Of a stretch of DNA of 64,000 nucleotides, positions 8,803 through 63,194 are shown in pieces. Under the pieces are notes generated by a model. The model worked only from the letters and a program-made list of their open reading frames with translations. It had not been told where the DNA came from and ran no database searches. Origin of the DNA: Candidatus Nomurabacteria bacterium GW2011_GWE1_32_28. GTDB lineage: Bacteria; Patescibacteriota; Minisyncoccia; Phycocordibacterales; UBA9973. Positions within the stretch are counted from its first letter, which is position 1. The number at the start of each line of letters is the position of its first letter. The stretch is from NCBI GenBank assembly GCA_000989515.1, contig LBOM01000001.1, forward strand, positions 61,260 through 125,259. Reading direction: 5' to 3'. The translations under genes and the position numbers were made by a program.

Positions 8803-8817
8803 ATCAATATTAAAAAT

Positions 8818-8843
8818 ACCAAGAGGAAACTCTTGGTATTTTT
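8818..8843 (+). terminator. rho-independent terminator after clpB
   Basis: Hairpin ACCAAGAG-GAAA-CTCTTGGT followed by ATTTTT. Confidence 0.7.
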
Positions 8844-9040
8844 AATATGGTGCGCTGTACTCGAGAATGTTAGAACTGAATTAATGAATTATAGGGGTGA
8901 GTTGTATATCCCCAACCTTTCTATGTGGGCAGAAAGACAAATGTGATTTTACCCCACACCCTTGTATACTATATGTTTGAGGGGCATAGATGTGAGGAAA
9001 GATCAATATCGATGACTCTTTGATAGGTACTTAGTAAAGA

Positions 9041-9931
9041 TTACTTATACCAATCTCCGGATCCAACATATTCTTTAAAGGTTTTTAATACTAGTAAGGT
9101 TACTTTACCTACTTTGCCGTTTCCAATAAAACTATTATCTACTTGTACAACAGGGGCTACTTCTTTACCGCTACTTGCAAGAAAAACTTCATCTGCTTCT
9201 AATAAAAAATCTAAGTTAAAATCTTTCTCAATTACCTCAAAATCGTCCTTGAGATTATTTACAATAACACCTCTTGCTGAACCATAAAAAACATTATTTT
9301 TAGGTGTATAAATTTTACCGTCTTTGATAACAAAAATATTACTATTAGATGTTTCAAACACTTGTTCTTCTGAATAATATAGAGGTTCAAATATACCCTT
9401 TTCTTTATTAAGATGTGCTTGTTTAATTCCTTCTATGTAATTAAAATTCTTTGCTTTAGGCACATCTCTTTTATATTTTATAGTATTTAATATAACACCC
9501 TCACTGTAGATTGTAGGATCTTTTACTTTAAATGTATCCATGAATATAATAATAGTTGGTTCACTTTTTTGATACATAGAATCAGAAACTCCACCAGAAA
9601 TATGAATCCTTATGCTTTTTTCTTTACCATCATTATTTAATTCTAATAATTTATTTACTGCTTGTTCAATTTCTGAAAAAGAAAAATTATGCCTAAGTTC
9701 TATTAATTTAGTAGATTCCATAAGTCTATCTATGTGTTCTTTTAACTTGAAAGCCCTTCCTTTGTAAGTTCTTATGTATTCAAACACACCGTATCCTCTT
9801 GAGTATCCCAAGTCTCTCGGAGAAATAAGTAACTCTTTTTCATCAACAAAGTTGCCATTTAAATATTGTTTATAGTTTTGCATATTATTTATATATAATA
9901 TATTATTACGAAATTTCTTTTCTGCATTCAA
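9041..9931 (-). CDS. class IV aminotransferase (branched-chain / D-amino-acid aminotransferase family)
   Basis: 296 aa, similar by eye to the IlvE/Dat fold-type IV PLP enzymes (GYGVFEYIRTY, EHIDRLMES). Confidence 0.65.
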   Translation of the reverse strand: MNAEKKFRNNILYINNMQNYKQYLNGNFVDEKELLISPRDLGYSRGYGVFEYIRTYKGRAFKLKEHIDRLMESTKLIELRHNFSFSEIEQAVNKLLELNNDGKEKSIRIHISGGVSDSMYQKSEPTIIIFMDTFKVKDPTIYSEGVILNTIKYKRDVPKAKNFNYIEGIKQAHLNKEKGIFEPLYYSEEQVFETSNSNIFVIKDGKIYTPKNNVFYGSARGVIVNNLKDDFEVIEKDFNLDFLLEADEVFLASSGKEVAPVVQVDNSFIGNGKVGKVTLLVLKTFKEYVGSGDWYK

Positions 9932-12876: not shown

Positions 12877-12959
12877 TGCGCCGGGTAGGATTCGAACCTA
12901 CGTAGCCCGAAGGCGACAGATTTACAGTCTGTTGTAATTGACCGCTCTACCACCGACGC
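12877..12959 (-). tRNA. tRNA-Tyr (anticodon GTA), long variable arm
   Basis: Acceptor GCGTCGG/CCGGCGC with discriminator A, D-arm GTAGAGC, anticodon loop CTGTAAA, a long variable arm and T-arm GTAGG-TTCGAAT-CCTAC. Confidence 0.85.
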
Positions 12960-18480: not shown

Positions 18481-19425
18481 ATGGAAGATTTATCATCATT
18501 AAATGATTCTGTTTCTACAGATAATAATATTTTTAAATTTAGTTCTTTTAAGAAAAAGTTTTATTATTTTCTTGTTTTTTTAATTACATTATTTGTATTT
18601 ATATATTTTTTGTTTTTTTCTATACCAAGTAATTTTCCGATAAATTATGTTTTAAATATTAAGGAAAATTCAAGTTTAAGATATACGTCTAAATATTTAC
18701 AAGAAATTAATATAATTCGTTCAAGGGTTGTTTTTGAAACTATTGTAATAATTTTAGGAGGTGAAAAATATATAACATCAGGAGATTATTTTTTTGAAAA
18801 TAAATTATCTGTTTTTAAAGTTGCTAGACGTATAGTAAAAGGAGAACGCCATATAGCACCAGTCAAGGTGACAATACCAGAAGGTTTTAATATATCTGAT
18901 ATTTCTAAACTTTTTGTTTCTAAATTACCTAATTTTAATAAAGAGAAATTTTTGTTAGAAGCAGGCCCTCAAGAAGGTTATCTTTTTCCAGATACTTATT
19001 TCTTTCTCACAACAGACAATGAAGAAGATGTATTATTACTTATGAGTAATAATTTTAAAAAAAGAATAGTGACTTTTCAATCATCAATAGCAACATCTGG
19101 CAAATCAGAAAAAGAAATTATAGTTATGGCTTCATTAATAGAAGAAGAATCTAAGGGGGATGTAGATAGAAAAATTATTTCTGGAATTTTGTGGAAGAGA
19201 ATTTCTATAGGCATGCCTCTTCAAGTAGACGCAGAACCTAACACATATAAAGTTAAAGGTTTACCACTAAATCCGATTTCTAATCCTGGAATAAAAGCAA
19301 TAGAAGCTGCGATATATCCAGAATCTTCAAATTATCTTTATTATTTACACGACAAAAATGGTAATATTCATTATGCTAGGACTTTTGAAGAACATAAGTT
19401 AAACAAGCAAAGGTATTTGAAATAA
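18481..19425 (+). CDS. mltG: endolytic murein transglycosylase MltG (YceG-like)
   Basis: N-terminal TM helix and the family signature EGYLFPDTYFF. Confidence 0.75.
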   Translation: MEDLSSLNDSVSTDNNIFKFSSFKKKFYYFLVFLITLFVFIYFLFFSIPSNFPINYVLNIKENSSLRYTSKYLQEINIIRSRVVFETIVIILGGEKYITSGDYFFENKLSVFKVARRIVKGERHIAPVKVTIPEGFNISDISKLFVSKLPNFNKEKFLLEAGPQEGYLFPDTYFFLTTDNEEDVLLLMSNNFKKRIVTFQSSIATSGKSEKEIIVMASLIEEESKGDVDRKIISGILWKRISIGMPLQVDAEPNTYKVKGLPLNPISNPGIKAIEAAIYPESSNYLYYLHDKNGNIHYARTFEEHKLNKQRYLK

Positions 19426-19443
19426 AAAATAAAAAATATAAAA

Positions 19444-19526
19444 TAGCTACTTTTTCACGACTCGCACTCTAATCTGGCGTCATTGTGTATCTTGCAGTAG
19501 CGTATGTCGAGAAAAGTACTATTTTA
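19444..19526. repeat. intergenic repeat element copy A (about 80 nt, terminal inverted repeats)
   Basis: TAGCTACTTTTTCACGACTCGCAC...AGTAGCGTATGTCGAGAAAAGTACT. It is conserved with the copies at 20097 and 21399, and the ends are inverted repeats. Confidence 0.7.
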
Positions 19527-19546
19527 AGTTTTTTATAAAAATTTAT

Positions 19547-20074
19547 ATGAAAAAACATAATTTAGCTTTTATAGATATAGAAACAACAGGACTTGATGTA
19601 ATAAATCATGAGATAATTGAAATTGGTTGTGTCATAACAACACCAAGATTAAGAGTGATTGAGAAATTTGAATTAAAAATAAAACCAGAACATATAGAAA
19701 ATGCTGATCCAGTAGCTTTAAAGATCAATCACTATAAAGAGGAAGATTGGAAGCATTCTCATTCTTTATTAGATGCTATGAAAATTCTTTCTAAAAAAGT
19801 TGAAGATTCCATTATGGTTGGACAAAATGTGTCCTTTGATTCAGGATTTTTGGAATATAACTTTTTAAAAATTGGATTAAAAAATACTATGCATTATCAT
19901 AAATTAGATACTATTTCTATCGCATGGTCTAAATTACATAATAAATCATATATTACTCATCTTTCTTTACGTGAATTATGTAAATATTTTGATATAAAAA
20001 ATGAACGTCCGCATAGTGCCTTATCGGATGCATATGCTACATATGAGCTTTACAAGAAGCTAATGAGTTTGTAG
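19547..20074 (+). CDS. DEDD-family 3'-5' exonuclease (DnaQ/epsilon-like)
   Basis: Exo I FIDIETTGLD, Exo II, and Exo III HSALSDAYAT. Confidence 0.75.
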   Translation: MKKHNLAFIDIETTGLDVINHEIIEIGCVITTPRLRVIEKFELKIKPEHIENADPVALKINHYKEEDWKHSHSLLDAMKILSKKVEDSIMVGQNVSFDSGFLEYNFLKIGLKNTMHYHKLDTISIAWSKLHNKSYITHLSLRELCKYFDIKNERPHSALSDAYATYELYKKLMSL

Positions 20075-20096
20075 AATTAAAATTTAAAATATAAAG

Positions 20097-20177
20097 TAGC
20101 TACTTTTCACGGCTCGCACTCCAACCTGATTTCATTGTCTATCTTACAGTAGCGTATACCGAAAAAAGCACTACTTT
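20097..20177. repeat. intergenic repeat element copy B
   Basis: TAGCTACTTTTCACGGCTCGCACTCCAACCTGATTTCATTGTCTATCTTACAGTAGCGTATACCGAAAAAAGCACTAC. It carries an A-T to G-C compensatory change in the terminal stem relative to copy A. Confidence 0.7.
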
Positions 20178-20192
20178 GTATTTTTAATAATT

Positions 20193-21383
20193 ATGAAAAA
20201 GAAAACAGTATTTGTAGGAATATCGGGAGGAGTAGATAGTGCTGTTTCGGCTGCATTATTGAAAGAACAAGGTTATGTTGTCATTGGAGTTTTTATACGC
20301 ACATGGCATCCAGATTTTTTAGAATGCAACGAAGAAGAAGAAAGACTTGATGCGATGCGTGTCGCAGCACATTTAGATATTCCATTTTTAACTTTTGATT
20401 TATCTGATGTGTACAAGAAAGAAGTTGCAGATTATATGATATCTGAATACAAGGCAGGCAAGACGCCAAATCCTGATGTTATGTGTAATAAAGAAGTGAA
20501 ATTTGGAGCTTTTCTTAAAAAAGCTATTTCTATGGGTGCTGATTATGTTGCTACAGGACATTATGCACAGAATTTTTTTATGAAAAATTCTGGTAAAAAA
20601 GCTTCCTTAATGTTTTTTTCACAGTCTGGCCGGGGTTCGGGGCCCCGGGGAACCGAGGACTTGATAAAAAATATTGAAGGAACTTTTTTATTTAAAGGAG
20701 TAGATACTTCTAAAGATCAAAGTTATTTTCTTTGGACATTAAAACAAAATCAACTAAATAGAATTTTATTTCCAATTGGTCATTTAAAAAAGACTGAAGT
20801 TAGAAAATTTGCTAAGAAATTTAATCTACCTGTTGCAGAGAAAAAAGATAGTCAGGGTATTTGTTTTTTAGGTGCTGTAGATTTAAAAGATTTTTTGAAA
20901 CATTATATTAAAGAAAAAAAAGGAAAAGTTTTAAATCAAGATGGAGAAGAAATAGGCTATCATGATGGTGTAGTCTTTCATACATTAGGGGAAAGACATG
21001 GTTTTGTTATTACTAAAAAAGGTTCAAAAGATGGAGCTTATTATGTAATTGATAAAGATTTAAAGAAAAATATTTTATATGTGTCACAAGATAAAAATTT
21101 TCAAAGGTCGGCCTTAAAATCTTCAAAAAGGGCCGACCTTAAGAATTTAGAAATTTTTTATTTTAAAATTAAAGATATAAACTGGATTTCTGAAATTCCA
21201 AAAGAAGACAAAGATTACACAGCTCAGATTCGTTATCATGGAGAATTTTTAGATTGTAAAATAAAATATGAAAAATCAGATATAACACAAATAATTTTTA
21301 AAAAACCTGTTTTGGTTGCATCTGGTCAATCTTGTGTAATTTATGATAAAGATATTTGTTTGGGTGGTGGTGTGGTTTTATAA
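20193..21383 (+). CDS. mnmA: tRNA-specific 2-thiouridylase MnmA, with two GC-rich in-frame insertions
   Basis: PP-loop VGISGGVDSAV with conserved Cys and catalytic regions; 396 aa. It contains GC-rich palindromic segments at 20624-20660 and 21104-21140. Confidence 0.85.
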   Translation: MKKKTVFVGISGGVDSAVSAALLKEQGYVVIGVFIRTWHPDFLECNEEEERLDAMRVAAHLDIPFLTFDLSDVYKKEVADYMISEYKAGKTPNPDVMCNKEVKFGAFLKKAISMGADYVATGHYAQNFFMKNSGKKASLMFFSQSGRGSGPRGTEDLIKNIEGTFLFKGVDTSKDQSYFLWTLKQNQLNRILFPIGHLKKTEVRKFAKKFNLPVAEKKDSQGICFLGAVDLKDFLKHYIKEKKGKVLNQDGEEIGYHDGVVFHTLGERHGFVITKKGSKDGAYYVIDKDLKKNILYVSQDKNFQRSALKSSKRADLKNLEIFYFKIKDINWISEIPKEDKDYTAQIRYHGEFLDCKIKYEKSDITQIIFKKPVLVASGQSCVIYDKDICLGGGVVL

Positions 21384-21398
21384 AAGTAAAAAACAGAA

Positions 21399-21479
21399 TA
21401 GTACTTTTTCACCACTCGCACACGAACCTGACGTCATTAATTATCTTTTAGTAGCGTATGTCGAAAAAAGTACTATTTT
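21399..21479. repeat. intergenic repeat element copy C
   Basis: TAGTACTTTTTCACCACTCGCACACGAACCTGACGTCATTAATTATCTTTTAGTAGCGTATGTCGAAAAAAGTACT with near-perfect 11-12 bp terminal inverted repeats. Confidence 0.7.
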
Positions 21480-21511
21480 GTTTTTTACTTATTGCGATGT
21501 ATAATATTTAT

Positions 21512-21991
21512 ATGGAACAATTTTTTATAGAAAATGGTGATTTTATTTTAAAATTAACAGTAGCTGTTTTGTTGGGTATGTTTATCGGTGCTGAACGTCT
21601 TTTTGTACACAAAGAAGCTGGTATGAAAACTCATGCTCTTGTTTCTATGGGTGCAGCTATTTTTATAATTATTTCTGAAACAATGGCAGAAAAATATATA
21701 AATTTATCAGGTTTTAATCCCATAATGATGGCTTCTAATATTATTGTAGGTATTGGTTTTCTTGGTGCTGGTATTATAATGTTTAGAGATTCTCATCTTT
21801 TGGGTCTTACAACAGCTGGTGGACTTTGGGTGACATCTGGTATAGGTATGGCTGCAGGGTTTGGACTTTTTAATCTTGCAATTATTTCGACTATTTTAGT
21901 ACTCTTTATTTTTATAGTTATGAATATTTTTGAAAAACCAATTAGAAAAATTTCAGAAGAAAATTTCTTAATAAAAGAAGAAGCAAAATAG
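21512..21991 (+). CDS. MgtC/SapB-family membrane protein
   Basis: The ORF-track start at 21458 (ATGTCGAAAAAAGTACT) lies inside repeat copy C. The MgtC-like N-terminus begins at MEQFFIENGDFILKLTVAVLLGMFIGAER (21512), and the motif KEAGMKTHALVSMGAAIF is present. Confidence 0.65.
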   Translation: MEQFFIENGDFILKLTVAVLLGMFIGAERLFVHKEAGMKTHALVSMGAAIFIIISETMAEKYINLSGFNPIMMASNIIVGIGFLGAGIIMFRDSHLLGLTTAGGLWVTSGIGMAAGFGLFNLAIISTILVLFIFIVMNIFEKPIRKISEENFLIKEEAK

Positions 21992-32854: not shown

Positions 32855-32892
32855 AAGGTAGCAAACTCTGCTATAGCAGAGTTTGCTACCTT
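32855..32892. other. 17-bp perfect hairpin (AAGGTAGCAAACTCTGC-TATA-GCAGAGTTTGCTACCTT)
   Basis: It lies directly after the paralog-1 stop codon and has no trailing T-run. Confidence 0.6.
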
Positions 32893-36835: not shown

Positions 36836-36920
36836 GAAAAATTGAATATCAAAAATTTTCTGGCGGACAAAACGAAGCCAGTGCCCGCAGGCGAAAACTT
36901 TTATATTAACTTTTTCTTTA

Positions 36921-37019
36921 AAAATATTAAATTTAAAAGATTTTAAGAGTCGTGTTTGTTCCCTGTCTTCACGGACTCCGAGTGCGAAGGCTTAGAAATC
37001 TTTTAAATTTAATATTTTT
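36921..37019. repeat. 23-bp perfect inverted repeat enclosing 53-nt GC-rich core, between convergent genes
   Basis: AAAATATTAAATTTAAAAGATTT at 36921-36943 pairs with AAATCTTTTAAATTTAATATTTT at 36997-37019. The core GAGTCGTG...CACGGACTC forms an inner hairpin. Confidence 0.6.
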
Positions 37020-39567: not shown

Positions 39568-39593
39568 TTTTTTAGCGAACTTGATTTCAAGAC

Positions 39594-39632
39594 AAAACTA
39601 AAAAGCCTCTATCGAGGGGCTTTTTAGTTTTG
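39594..39632 (+). terminator. long hairpin downstream of dnaK
   Basis: CAAAACTAAAAAGCC-TCTATCGAGG-GGCTTTTTAGTTTTG. Confidence 0.55.
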
Positions 39633-39657
39633 TCAATTTCTGGTATAATTTACCTGT

Positions 39658-48491: not shown

Positions 48492-48845
48492 TTGCGTTTT
48501 TGGCTGATTTCGTATAATATGAGTTATATGAAATTTGCAGTTATAAAAACAGGCGGAAAACAGTATAAAGTCTCAAAAGATGAGCTTGTTTCTATTGAAA
48601 AAATAAAAGGGGAATATAAAGTAGGAGATAAGGTTTCTTTTGATAAAATTTTATTAGTTGATGATGGGAAAAATACAACCATAGGAACACCTTATATTTT
48701 AGAAGCAAAAGTAGATGCTGAAATTGTAGAAATTGGACGTACTAGAAAAGTTCTAGTTATGAAATACAAACAGAAATCTCGCTATCTACGCCGTAATGGT
48801 CATCGTCAACCATTTTTTAAAGTAAAGATTTTAGATATAAAATAA
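48492..48845 (+). CDS. rplU: 50S ribosomal protein L21
   Basis: MKFAVIKTGGKQYKVSKDELV. The true start is probably Met13 at 48528; the upstream ORF-track extension is likely artefactual. Confidence 0.85.
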   Translation: MRFWLISYNMSYMKFAVIKTGGKQYKVSKDELVSIEKIKGEYKVGDKVSFDKILLVDDGKNTTIGTPYILEAKVDAEIVEIGRTRKVLVMKYKQKSRYLRRNGHRQPFFKVKILDIK

Positions 48846-48848
48846 AAA

Positions 48849-48873
48849 AACTTCTGAATTAAGAAGTTTTTTT
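48849..48873. terminator. bidirectional terminator between rplU and recR
   Basis: AACTTCT-GAATTA-AGAAGTT flanked by A-run and T-run. Confidence 0.65.
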
Positions 48874-49486
48874 ATTGTCGATTTTTAAGAGCATTTTTTA
48901 ATGTATCGTTATCTGAGTATTCGAGTTCGGTACCTGTAGAAAGACCTTTACCAAGAGAAGATATTTTAATATTTAGAGGTTCTATTATTTCTTTAAGTTG
49001 GTTTCTTAAATAAAAATCAGTGTGATTTCCCTGAGGAGTAGAGGAAAATGCCAAGACTATTTCTTTTAATTTATTTTTTTGAGTTTCTATCTTTTTTATT
49101 AATTCCTTCATTCGTATTTTTGAATTTGTATTTTTTTCAACGATAGGTACAAGTCCTCCTAATATAAAATATTTGCCATTATAAACTTTACTTTTATGAA
49201 TACTTTCTAAGTCTGAATCTTTTTCAAGTATCATTAAAGAGGAAATATCTTTATTTTCATCTATGCAAATTTCACATTTTGTATTTTTTTTATTTTCTAA
49301 AAGGAAAAATTTAAAACATTCAGGACATTGCGATACTTCTTTTTTTAAATTTTTTATGGAGTCAGCTAAAATATCTCCATAACTTCCGTTTCTAGACATT
49401 AGAAAATATACAAAACGTTTTGCTTGTCGTTCGCCGATACCAGGGAATTCTTTAAATATTTCAGTTAGTTTTTCTATCGTGTTCAT
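48872..49486 (-). CDS. recR: recombination protein RecR
   Basis: HhH (FPGIGERQAKRFVYFL), C4 zinc finger CPECFKF...CEIC and a Toprim domain. Confidence 0.85.
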   Translation of the reverse strand: MNTIEKLTEIFKEFPGIGERQAKRFVYFLMSRNGSYGDILADSIKNLKKEVSQCPECFKFFLLENKKNTKCEICIDENKDISSLMILEKDSDLESIHKSKVYNGKYFILGGLVPIVEKNTNSKIRMKELIKKIETQKNKLKEIVLAFSSTPQGNHTDFYLRNQLKEIIEPLNIKISSLGKGLSTGTELEYSDNDTLKNALKNRQ

Positions 49487-60138: not shown

Positions 60139-60373
60139 AAAAAACCTAGAAAGAAAGTTTTTAAGGGGTTTTGAGCGCGACGGCGTGAAAACTTCAGAAT
60201 TTTTTAAGCTTCAAAAAATTTGTACCGACAAAAATTTTACTTTTTAGGTTTTTTTAAAAAACTCTTACTTGGCATAACTTTTAAAAAACCACACATAAAA
60301 ATCTGCTGATTTTTTGCTATGCTCGGCTCGTCAGCCTGTGCAATGCTTTTTAAAAAGTACGCCTGCGATGAGT

Positions 60374-63067: not shown

Positions 63068-63174
63068 GTTATATCAAGAGTGGTGGTAGAGAATTGGCTC
63101 AAAGACCCCACAGCAACCCACAAATGGGTGCTAATTCCAACCTGTATTATTAAATTAATACTAGGAAAGATAGG
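63068..63174 (+). promoter_or_regulatory. SAM-I (S-box) riboswitch aptamer upstream of metK
   Basis: TTATATCAAGAGTGGTGGTAGAGAATTGGCTCAAAGACCCCACAGCAACC...GGGTGCTAATTCC...GAAAGATAGG matches the SAM-I consensus in P1, the kink-turn, GCAACC, GGUGCUAAUUCC and GAAAGAU. Confidence 0.85.
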
Positions 63175-63194
63175 TTTGTGTTTAGTCTACGCAG

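Follow-up and report, generated by a model that had tools for sequence, protein, structure and literature searches.

A probably mobile palindromic repeat family of Nomurabacteria/Paceibacteria, resembling the Rickettsia palindromic elements and found both between genes and in frame within housekeeping genes

The genomes of the Candidate Phyla Radiation (CPR) are tiny and tightly packed, and they are usually thought to be poor in repeats. The closest described systems are the Rickettsia palindromic elements (RPEs), which are 105-146 bp long and occur in frame in housekeeping genes as well as between genes (Ogata et al. 2000, as summarised in PMC10969869 and PMC3184786). The REPINs consist of two inverted halves in a long hairpin, show compensatory changes and long vertical persistence, and have been proposed to pass through a single-strand hairpin intermediate; they possess conserved termini (repetitive extragenic palindromic, REP, 16-mers), a variable spacer and an extragenic location (PMC3116915). 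The elements SPRITE, BOX and RUP of Streptococcus pneumoniae, Correia and ERIC are ~100-150 bp long, co-transcribed and capable of forming stable hairpins, being sometimes terminator-like (SPRITE, ~105 bp) and sometimes fused in frame to open reading frames (ORFs) (PMC3184786, PMC10969869). The window considered here, by which the whole analysed stretch of 64 kb is meant, is DNA of Candidatus Nomurabacteria bacterium GW2011_GWE1_32_28, a CPR/Patescibacteria metagenome-assembled genome (MAG) with ~29% G+C, and it carries three copies, A, B and C, of a hairpin-forming repeat. With a probability of about 0.6, these copies belong to a non-autonomous palindromic mobile repeat family of Nomurabacteria/Paceibacteria that is RPE-like and in part REPIN-like. 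Its kind is already known from the RPEs, and a literature search found no account of such elements in CPR, Patescibacteria or Parcubacteria.

The three repeats were confirmed at the places reported in a preliminary description of this DNA, all of them on the + strand, and the motif searches exceeded the shuffled sequences. The profile search (nhmmer) built from the three copies recovered only these three in the window, with E from 1e-25 to 3e-28 and the next-best match at E>1, and a covariance model gave ~100 bits for each of them against at most 35 bits for anything else in the window. The pairwise identity among the copies over the element is 73-80%. The preliminary description had presented an ~80-nucleotide (nt) element with inverted repeats of 12-17 bp, wedged between a stop codon and the next start; the placement stands, but the size does not, since the actual arms are 26-33 nt long and run out into the supposed flanks, giving full units of 105-108 nt. 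The distance from the preceding stop, previously put at 15-20 nt, is accordingly revised to 3, 7 and 0 nt for copies A, B and C, and that to the next start, previously 16-33 nt, to 10, 4 and 21 nt, the copies taking up nearly the whole spacers between the genes for YceG, an RNase T-like exonuclease, MnmA and MgtC:

19429..19536, + strand: copy A, full hairpin of 108 nt, lying after the YceG stop (19425) and ahead of the exonuclease start (19547); 101.5 bits
19450..19516, + strand: copy A core, comprising the left collar (CTTTTTCACGAC-TCGCAC-TCT-AAT-CTG), apical module iii (GCGTCATTGTGTATCTTGCAGTA) and the right collar (GCGTATGTCGAGAAAAG)
20082..20188, + strand: copy B, full hairpin of ~107 nt, lying after the exonuclease stop (20074) and ahead of the MnmA start (20193), core at 20103-20168; 100.9 bits
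21384..21490, + strand: copy C, full hairpin of 107 nt, directly after the MnmA stop (21383), core at 21404-21470, arms of 26 nt that are 96% complementary; 97.5 bits

The multi-copy alignment gives a family unit with a median length of 105 nt (35 codons), which forms a single long imperfect hairpin when single-stranded and is ordered, from outside to inside, into outer arms, collar and apical module. The outer arms, of ~18 bp, are A-rich on the left and T-rich on the right and vary in sequence by subfamily; their outermost 18 pairs are the most variable columns of the alignment, the conserved block being internal. The latter is the collar, near-invariant and asymmetric (CTTTTTCACGGC-TCGCAC..AACCTG / GCGTATGCCGAAAAAAG), the strands of which, CTTTTTC-AC-GGC-T-CGC-AC..AAC-YTG on the left and GCG-TAT-GCC-G-AAAAAAG on the right, pair through a 2x1 loop, a 4-bp helix, a 1x3 loop and a CGC/GCG helix. 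The apical module, of ~24 nt, exists in at least three unrelated versions, namely i (AATGTGGTTNACGAANCTAATATT), ii (GAAACAATAAAAGAATCTACCGTT) and iii (ACGTCATTAAGTATCTTNNAGTA), the last being the type of the window, with an in-frame TAG and a 55-nt core; no structure shared among the three was found on folding.

The compensatory change that had been noticed earlier is confirmed, copy A having CGAC/GTCG where copy B has CGGC/CCG, and it turns out to be one among many. Changes on both sides are present in 24 of the 29 stem pairs, amounting to 378 double-change cells over 89 copies, values that were reached by none of 500 shuffles, with slid controls far lower. The copy of L002, one of the related loci (denoted here by L numbers), has arms wholly different in sequence and still forms a perfect 26-bp stem. 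The fold z-scores of the window copies are from -4.4 to -6.2 as RNA and from -3.4 to -5.8 as DNA, the range across all folds run being -3.4 to -6.3. The pairs of the outer arms are ~1166 standard, 12 G:T and 30 A:C, which is Watson-Crick complementarity, and G:T being rarer than A:C is the opposite of what would be expected under selection on the sense RNA fold.

Beyond the window, when one genome per species was scanned with an exact pattern, full copies turned up in two further Paceibacteria MAGs, at the orthologous YceG/exonuclease junction (L001) and between a tRNA and another gene (L002). A looser pattern applied to metagenome contigs gave 89 stretches with 92 unique copies, and the covariance model R1 gave 94 sense-strand copies at >=82 bits in 84 loci of 720 kb in total; five of the R1 copies break the search pattern, and the family is therefore wider than the pattern. 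Six separate stretches on one 598-kb contig (Ga0265297_10000035) correspond to about one copy per 80-100 kb. All matches come from groundwater/aquifer CPR contigs of Nomurabacteria/Paceibacteria, and no real copies were found on viral contigs, where one pattern gave 9 chance matches and the other 0.

Within long ORFs lie 37-38 of the 92 copies (~40%), every one in the same frame, which is read as ..LLFHGSHSNLNVVxExNIAYAEKS.. and would give the insert peptide stretch LFHGSHSNLNVV... in such hosts as LeuRS, MnmA and Tgt. The host proteins are MnmA (two sites), LeuRS (two sites), Tgt, the Asp/Glu racemase MurI and an S-adenosylmethionine (SAM)-dependent methyltransferase. The MurI genes of L024 and L046 are longer by exactly 105 nt (35 codons) than the empty MurI of L043. 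The arms of the coding copies avoid TAA and TAG (for instance, AAAGCAG in place of AAATAG), and module iii is intergenic in 10 of 10 unique copies, while of the 82 copies with other modules 38 are coding (Fisher p 0.005). In L018 the element is absent from the three spacers, yet two copies are present in frame inside mnmA; among the 120 closest MnmA protein clusters, nine carry the insert peptide. For the MnmA of L018 (P0183) AlphaFold2 gave a poor model, with a mean predicted local distance difference test (pLDDT) value of 56 and the inserts at ~130-155 and 297-321 below 50, and both MnmA insert sites are length-variable in alignments. The in-frame copies sit in what the sequences indicate to be variable loops of housekeeping enzymes. 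Occurrence within the coding sequence of relatives, which the preliminary description had regarded as speaking against its view, is thus a fact, and it leads to the element being reclassified, not abolished.

An insert-peptide profile run against 92 candidate proteins detected just three tiny ORFs, P0121-P0123 (36-71 amino acids), over intergenic copies. In the window an ATG at 21458 falls inside copy C, and the longest-ORF call wrongly starts mgtC there, the conserved start being 21512; together, the small ORFs called over intergenic copies and this false mgtC start show that the element causes annotation artefacts. Apart from the studied element, the mnmA gene of the window carries two other in-frame palindromic inserts, at 20594-20690 (25-nt AT-rich arms and a GC-rich apex, GGCCGGGGTTCGGGGCCCCGGGGAACC) and at ~21093-21150 (AAGGTCGGCC...GGGCCGACCTT), which occupy the two loop sites where the MnmA of relatives carries the element; since these sites are filled by different palindromes, several hairpin families seem to use the same protein loops.

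The occupancy of orthologous sites is variable. Window sites A, B and C all lack the element in L014, L018 and L020, as do B and C in L001; at such element-free junctions the genes overlap, stand 4-10 nt apart or are separated by a spacer with an unrelated hairpin. At site C the spacer of L001, L014 and L018 is 7 nt long, the whole 107-nt palindrome being extra in the window. The site of copy A is occupied at the orthologous position in L001, L056, L058 and L109, and that of copy B in L049. The yceG-exonuclease-mnmA-mgtC neighbourhood contains five distinct insertion sites within 3 kb (Poisson p ~2e-6). In the MurI of L030 the core is inverted in place, and between L047 and L051, the MurI proteins of which are 92% identical, the arms are nearly identical and the apical modules different. 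Arm sequences are common to the two LeuRS sites and the adjacent methyltransferase site, and likewise to the two MnmA sites, while copy B is nearest to the site-A copy of L058 (90%) rather than to its own site-B orthologue (80%). Taken together, the absences at sites, the inversion, the module swaps, the shared arms, the clustered insertion sites and the affinity of copy B show copying, conversion and inversion at the DNA level.

In the empty MurI of L043 (~9545-9565), a small hairpin AAAGAC-GATA-GTCTTT stands exactly at the position of the 105-nt element of the relatives, and it could be the scar left by a deletion or else a favoured target. That the outer arms arose from an inverted target duplication, as L047 versus L043 had suggested, was rejected, since the arms are homologous to those of L024/L046 and shared between sites. 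Also rejected was the derivation of the intergenic copies from former in-frame C-terminal insertions that gained stops, the upstream ORFs being out of phase with the element frame.

The likeness of the family to the RPEs is one of functional class, drawn from descriptions of the RPEs, and membership in RPE families is not claimed. Both are palindromic repeats of ~105-150 bp in small, AT-rich, reduced genomes, placed between genes and in frame in unrelated housekeeping ORFs with a conserved peptide per family; for both no transposase is known, and the insertions appear to be tolerated in variable protein regions. The present family differs in the phylum (CPR) and its lower copy number, in the invariant internal collar with fast-covarying outer arms and an exchangeable apical module, and in the strict co-orientation with transcription, intergenic copies included. 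With the REPINs it shares the paired inverted halves, the compensatory changes, the vertical persistence and, as a proposal, the single-strand intermediate, but neither the conserved termini and variable spacer nor the restriction to extragenic sites. The SPRITE, BOX, RUP, Correia and ERIC group, close to it in size, hairpin formation and co-transcription, has conserved terminal repeats, and several of its members have defined target duplications or cognate insertion sequences, in contrast to the element studied, the termini of which are variable and which does not fit the canonical terminator pattern. Like the integron attC sites, the element is an imperfect hairpin, apparently read by structure, with strand-marking unpaired bases and a variable centre, situated directly past stop codons and oriented as the genes are; unlike them, it shows no R''/R' boxes (RYYYAAC / GTTRRRY) by alignment inspection, occurs also inside ORFs, and is flanked by syntenic housekeeping genes instead of cassettes. 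No integrase was seen, intI not having been searched genome-wide, and the attC-like reading, together with that of a bulge-helix-bulge, was set aside on inspection.

The mobile-repeat interpretation would imply that the element is copied as a folded single strand, on which a postulated trans-acting enzyme would read the invariant asymmetric collar (one bulge and two internal loops), the outer arms needing merely to pair. Their complementarity may be kept by this hairpin requirement, by templated arm-to-arm correction (quasi-palindrome template switching) or by both, and selection on the mRNA fold is probably not what keeps it. Quasi-palindrome template switching is established in E. coli. The copies would persist where a 35-codon stop-free insert or a post-stop hairpin is tolerated, and they would ride in host transcripts, in which termination or stabilisation of the RNA may arise as a side effect of the hairpin (~-30 kcal/mol) that ends the upstream cistron. 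The earlier suggestion of a mobile repeat resembling a MITE (a miniature transposable element with inverted repeats) holds in so far as the element is dispersed, multi-copy, present or absent at orthologous sites and divided into subfamilies, but it is not a classical MITE.

Several observations weigh against mobility. The copies follow the orientation of the local gene in 26 of 27 tandem intergenic cases and in 37 of 38 coding ones, a pattern that is not accounted for by stop codons alone, since an open frame also runs along the core's reverse strand. At loci where most genes are opposite, the copies still follow the local gene; a replication-strand bias as the cause is disfavoured (binomial against 75% leading-strand genes, p 0.004-0.02), the GC skew being dominated by coding-strand bias. 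Between orthologous copies the collar is 91-92% identical at the positions which the search pattern left free, against 57-61% identity at synonymous third positions of their host genes, and copy A shares 89% identity with its orthologue in L001, the figure for the synonymous sites of the adjacent gene being 69%. Such constraint is more typical of functional sequence, unless the copies are continually refreshed, and strict co-orientation and collar conservation above synonymous sites are both left unexplained by a mobile repeat. In ~1 Mb of flanks no transposase, recombinase or recurrent neighbour gene adjoins the copies; when all ORFs of the loci with copies were clustered, nothing emerged beyond housekeeping genes of the hosts and their neighbourhoods, a LAGLIDADG-like helix-turn-helix protein, Xer and RAYT-like genes, the last three kinds never adjacent to a copy. 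No target-site duplication is definable in the AT-rich flanks: copy C has TTATAA on its left and TATAAT on its right, a possible TATAA duplication that is indistinguishable from a re-created -10 box. The copy number is low for a mobile repeat, the window copies are old (20-27% diverged from one another), and neither a transposition intermediate nor a polymorphic allele within a population was seen.

The co-orientation and the conservation are what a host-serving, cis-acting mRNA hairpin might be expected to display, namely one that stops transcription, shields the 3' end or guides RNase III-type processing between cistrons, its spread being secondary, as in a domesticated "mobile terminator" of the SPRITE kind; we regard this as a possible explanation, yet a doubtful one. 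The intergenic cores begin 19-41 nt past a co-oriented upstream stop codon in nearly all copies, convergent sites outnumber divergent ones by 13 to 4, and in no fewer than 11 of 28 downstream genes a TATAAT-like box precedes the ATG by 6-8 nt, so that with a gene end upstream and such a box downstream the element sits where a terminator would, between the end of one gene and the next promoter. The arms, moreover, resemble the ordinary post-gene AT-rich palindromes of the genome. Against this, ~40% of the copies are within essential ORFs, and termination therefore cannot be why the element exists; a symmetric stem terminates either way round, which leaves the orientation bias unexplained by termination; and relatives dispense with the element at these junctions, their genes there overlapping or being separated by 4-10 nt. 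The intrinsic terminator pattern (GC-rich stem, 3-8-nt loop, U tract) does not apply to an element with a loop/core of ~45 nt and a T-rich tract engaged in pairing with the A-rich arm, and a consensus terminator scan calls none of the three copies. The scarcity of G:U pairs relative to A:C mismatches and the lack of a common structure in the three apical modules also disagree with it. Of the terminator or stabiliser hairpin named in the preliminary description, what survives is a possible side effect of the intergenic copies.

The genes adjoining the copies in the window, with the hexamer preceding the last of them, are as follows:

18481..19425, + strand: YceG/MltG-like gene, upstream of copy A (PF02618, 1e-55)
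19547..20074, + strand: RNase T/DnaQ-like 3'-5' exonuclease gene, between copies A and B
20193..21383, + strand: mnmA (tRNA 2-thiouridylase), between copies B and C
21500..21505, + strand: TATAAT hexamer, 6 nt upstream of the MgtC ATG at 21512; a putative promoter element, judged from its sequence only
21512..21991, + strand: mgtC-family gene, downstream of copy C, with a start (ATGGAACAATTTTTT) conserved in relatives

At the mnmA-mgtC junction of relatives (L014/L018/L001) the TATAAT hexamer overlaps the MnmA stop codon. The boxes TATAAT/TAGAAT located 6-8 nt before an ATG without a Shine-Dalgarno sequence were seen in the window (21500-21512) and in L039, L053, L059, L071, L081, L089, L101, L104, L110 and L002, as well as at the junction just mentioned, which suggests that leaderless mRNAs may be common in these Nomurabacteria.

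A function of the transcribed strand offers another account, likewise tentative and rather unlikely, in which a CPR-specific factor would read the collar either in the mRNA or in the displaced non-template DNA strand, making the element a long-lived structure-specific module. If this were so, reading in the mRNA would amount to the control of processing, termination or decay, whereas reading in the non-template strand would amount to a new hairpin-dependent, transcription-coupled mechanism of transposition or recombination. Such a factor would account jointly for the co-orientation, the conservation above synonymous sites and the exchange of apical modules, and its function would coexist with the translation of the same sequence inside essential enzymes.

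A classical MITE in the strict sense, i.e., a deletion derivative moved by an insertion-sequence transposase through conserved terminal inverted repeats with target-site duplication, agrees with the small size, the inverted-repeat ends, the multiple copies, their presence/absence polymorphism and the lack of coding capacity for an enzyme. It is nevertheless improbable, as the termini are the least conserved part and differ by subfamily while the conserved sequence is internal, there is no consistent flanking duplication (the net gain in MurI being exactly 105 nt), ~1 Mb of flanking DNA contains no insertion sequence whose ends match, and insertion in random orientation is not observed.

Quite improbable, too, is a REPIN-RAYT system, where the hairpin would be a REP doublet and a single-copy REP-associated tyrosine (Y1/HUH) transposase (RAYT) would mobilise it. 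The long, persistent and vertically inherited hairpin with compensatory changes is as described for REPINs (PMC3116915), and RAYT-like genes, by weak PF01797 / NF047646 matches, are present in seven related loci. Each of them, however, is flanked by its own short GC-rich REP hairpins unrelated to the element, none adjoins a copy and none lies in the window; the variable ends, conserved inner collar and 40% intragenic location of the element are the reverse of the arrangement in the extragenic REPINs.

The third suggestion of the preliminary description, a shared 5'-untranslated regulatory RNA, corresponds to a structured non-coding RNA or riboswitch-like leader for the downstream genes, and it has to be given up as very improbable. 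The covarying helix, the conserved internal sequence and the intergenic position in the window would suit it, but what lies downstream is a set of unrelated genes (exonuclease, mnmA, mgtC, prfB-like and others), the element keeps close to the upstream stop instead of the downstream start, orthologous leaders and spacers of relatives lack it, copies elsewhere are translated in frame, and the apical part has no conserved structure. Rfam gave no family match for the element at the gathering score in the window and 11 loci with modules i and ii, and at E up to 10 in a 2-kb region just chance-level matches to microRNA-like hairpins. Lastly, a hairpin intervening sequence cut out of the RNA by an endonuclease with RtcB religation is scarcely credible: the collar geometry alone (2x1 loop, 4-bp CGGC/GCCG helix and 1x3 loop on opposite strands) approaches a relaxed bulge-helix-bulge, but all 37-38 coding copies keep the frame open throughout, which splicing would make unnecessary, and the stop-containing module iii, tolerable to splicing, is never in ORFs.

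The mobile, RPE-like family considered above would mean that 105-bp palindromes colonise both gene ends and the coding sequence of the essential LeuRS, MnmA, Tgt and MurI, providing, in an unrelated lineage with reduced genomes, a second, independent case of what has been known mainly from Rickettsia as the "protein-coding palindrome" phenomenon. The element accounts for length-variable segments in CPR proteins and for spurious small ORF calls, and it is a source of assembly as well as annotation artefacts. Its invariant collar, covarying arms and strict orientation constitute a defined substrate for finding the enzyme or RNA-binding factor, and it permits the testing of hairpin repeats as terminators in organisms whose transcription signals are essentially unstudied.

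The RAYT-like Y1 transposase genes mentioned above are located in L020 (7045-7707), L027 (899-1531), L035 (7989-8660), L070 (7525-7956), L085 (3612-4049), L095 (7099-7722) and L110 (2292-2846), and the genome-specific short GC-rich REP hairpin flanking each of them on both sides suggests genuine REP/RAYT systems in CPR genomes. Other repeats were noticed in the window itself. At 36920-37019, between convergent genes, there is a hairpin whose AT-rich arms pair perfectly over 24 bp around a 52-nt core; its minus strand contains TCGCACTCGGA, against TCGCACTCGAA of the family, and with only 21 bits from the covariance model it could be remotely related to the family or have nothing to do with it. 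A second repeat family of ~100 nt (GTTTTTAAGGGGTTT.GAG...TTTTTTAAGCTTCAAAAAAT...) is represented once in the window (60150-60245) and also in L014 (10545-10650), where it stands at the exonuclease/mnmA junction and the gene call extends MnmA over it at the N-terminus. Right after gene ends there are also AT-rich palindromes, perfect over 18-26 bp and with 0-4-nt loops, at 402-451, 8807-8848, 32855-32892, 39591-39634 and 48841-48876; they look ordinary for the genome, and their arms resemble the outer arms of the element (15-35 bits from the covariance model). The Rfam matches in the window are a SAM riboswitch (63068-63176, 51.9 bits), a cluster of four tRNAs (1222-1658) and one further tRNA (12877-12959), the matches across the window and the 11 related loci being otherwise tRNAs, a tmRNA and a SAM riboswitch.

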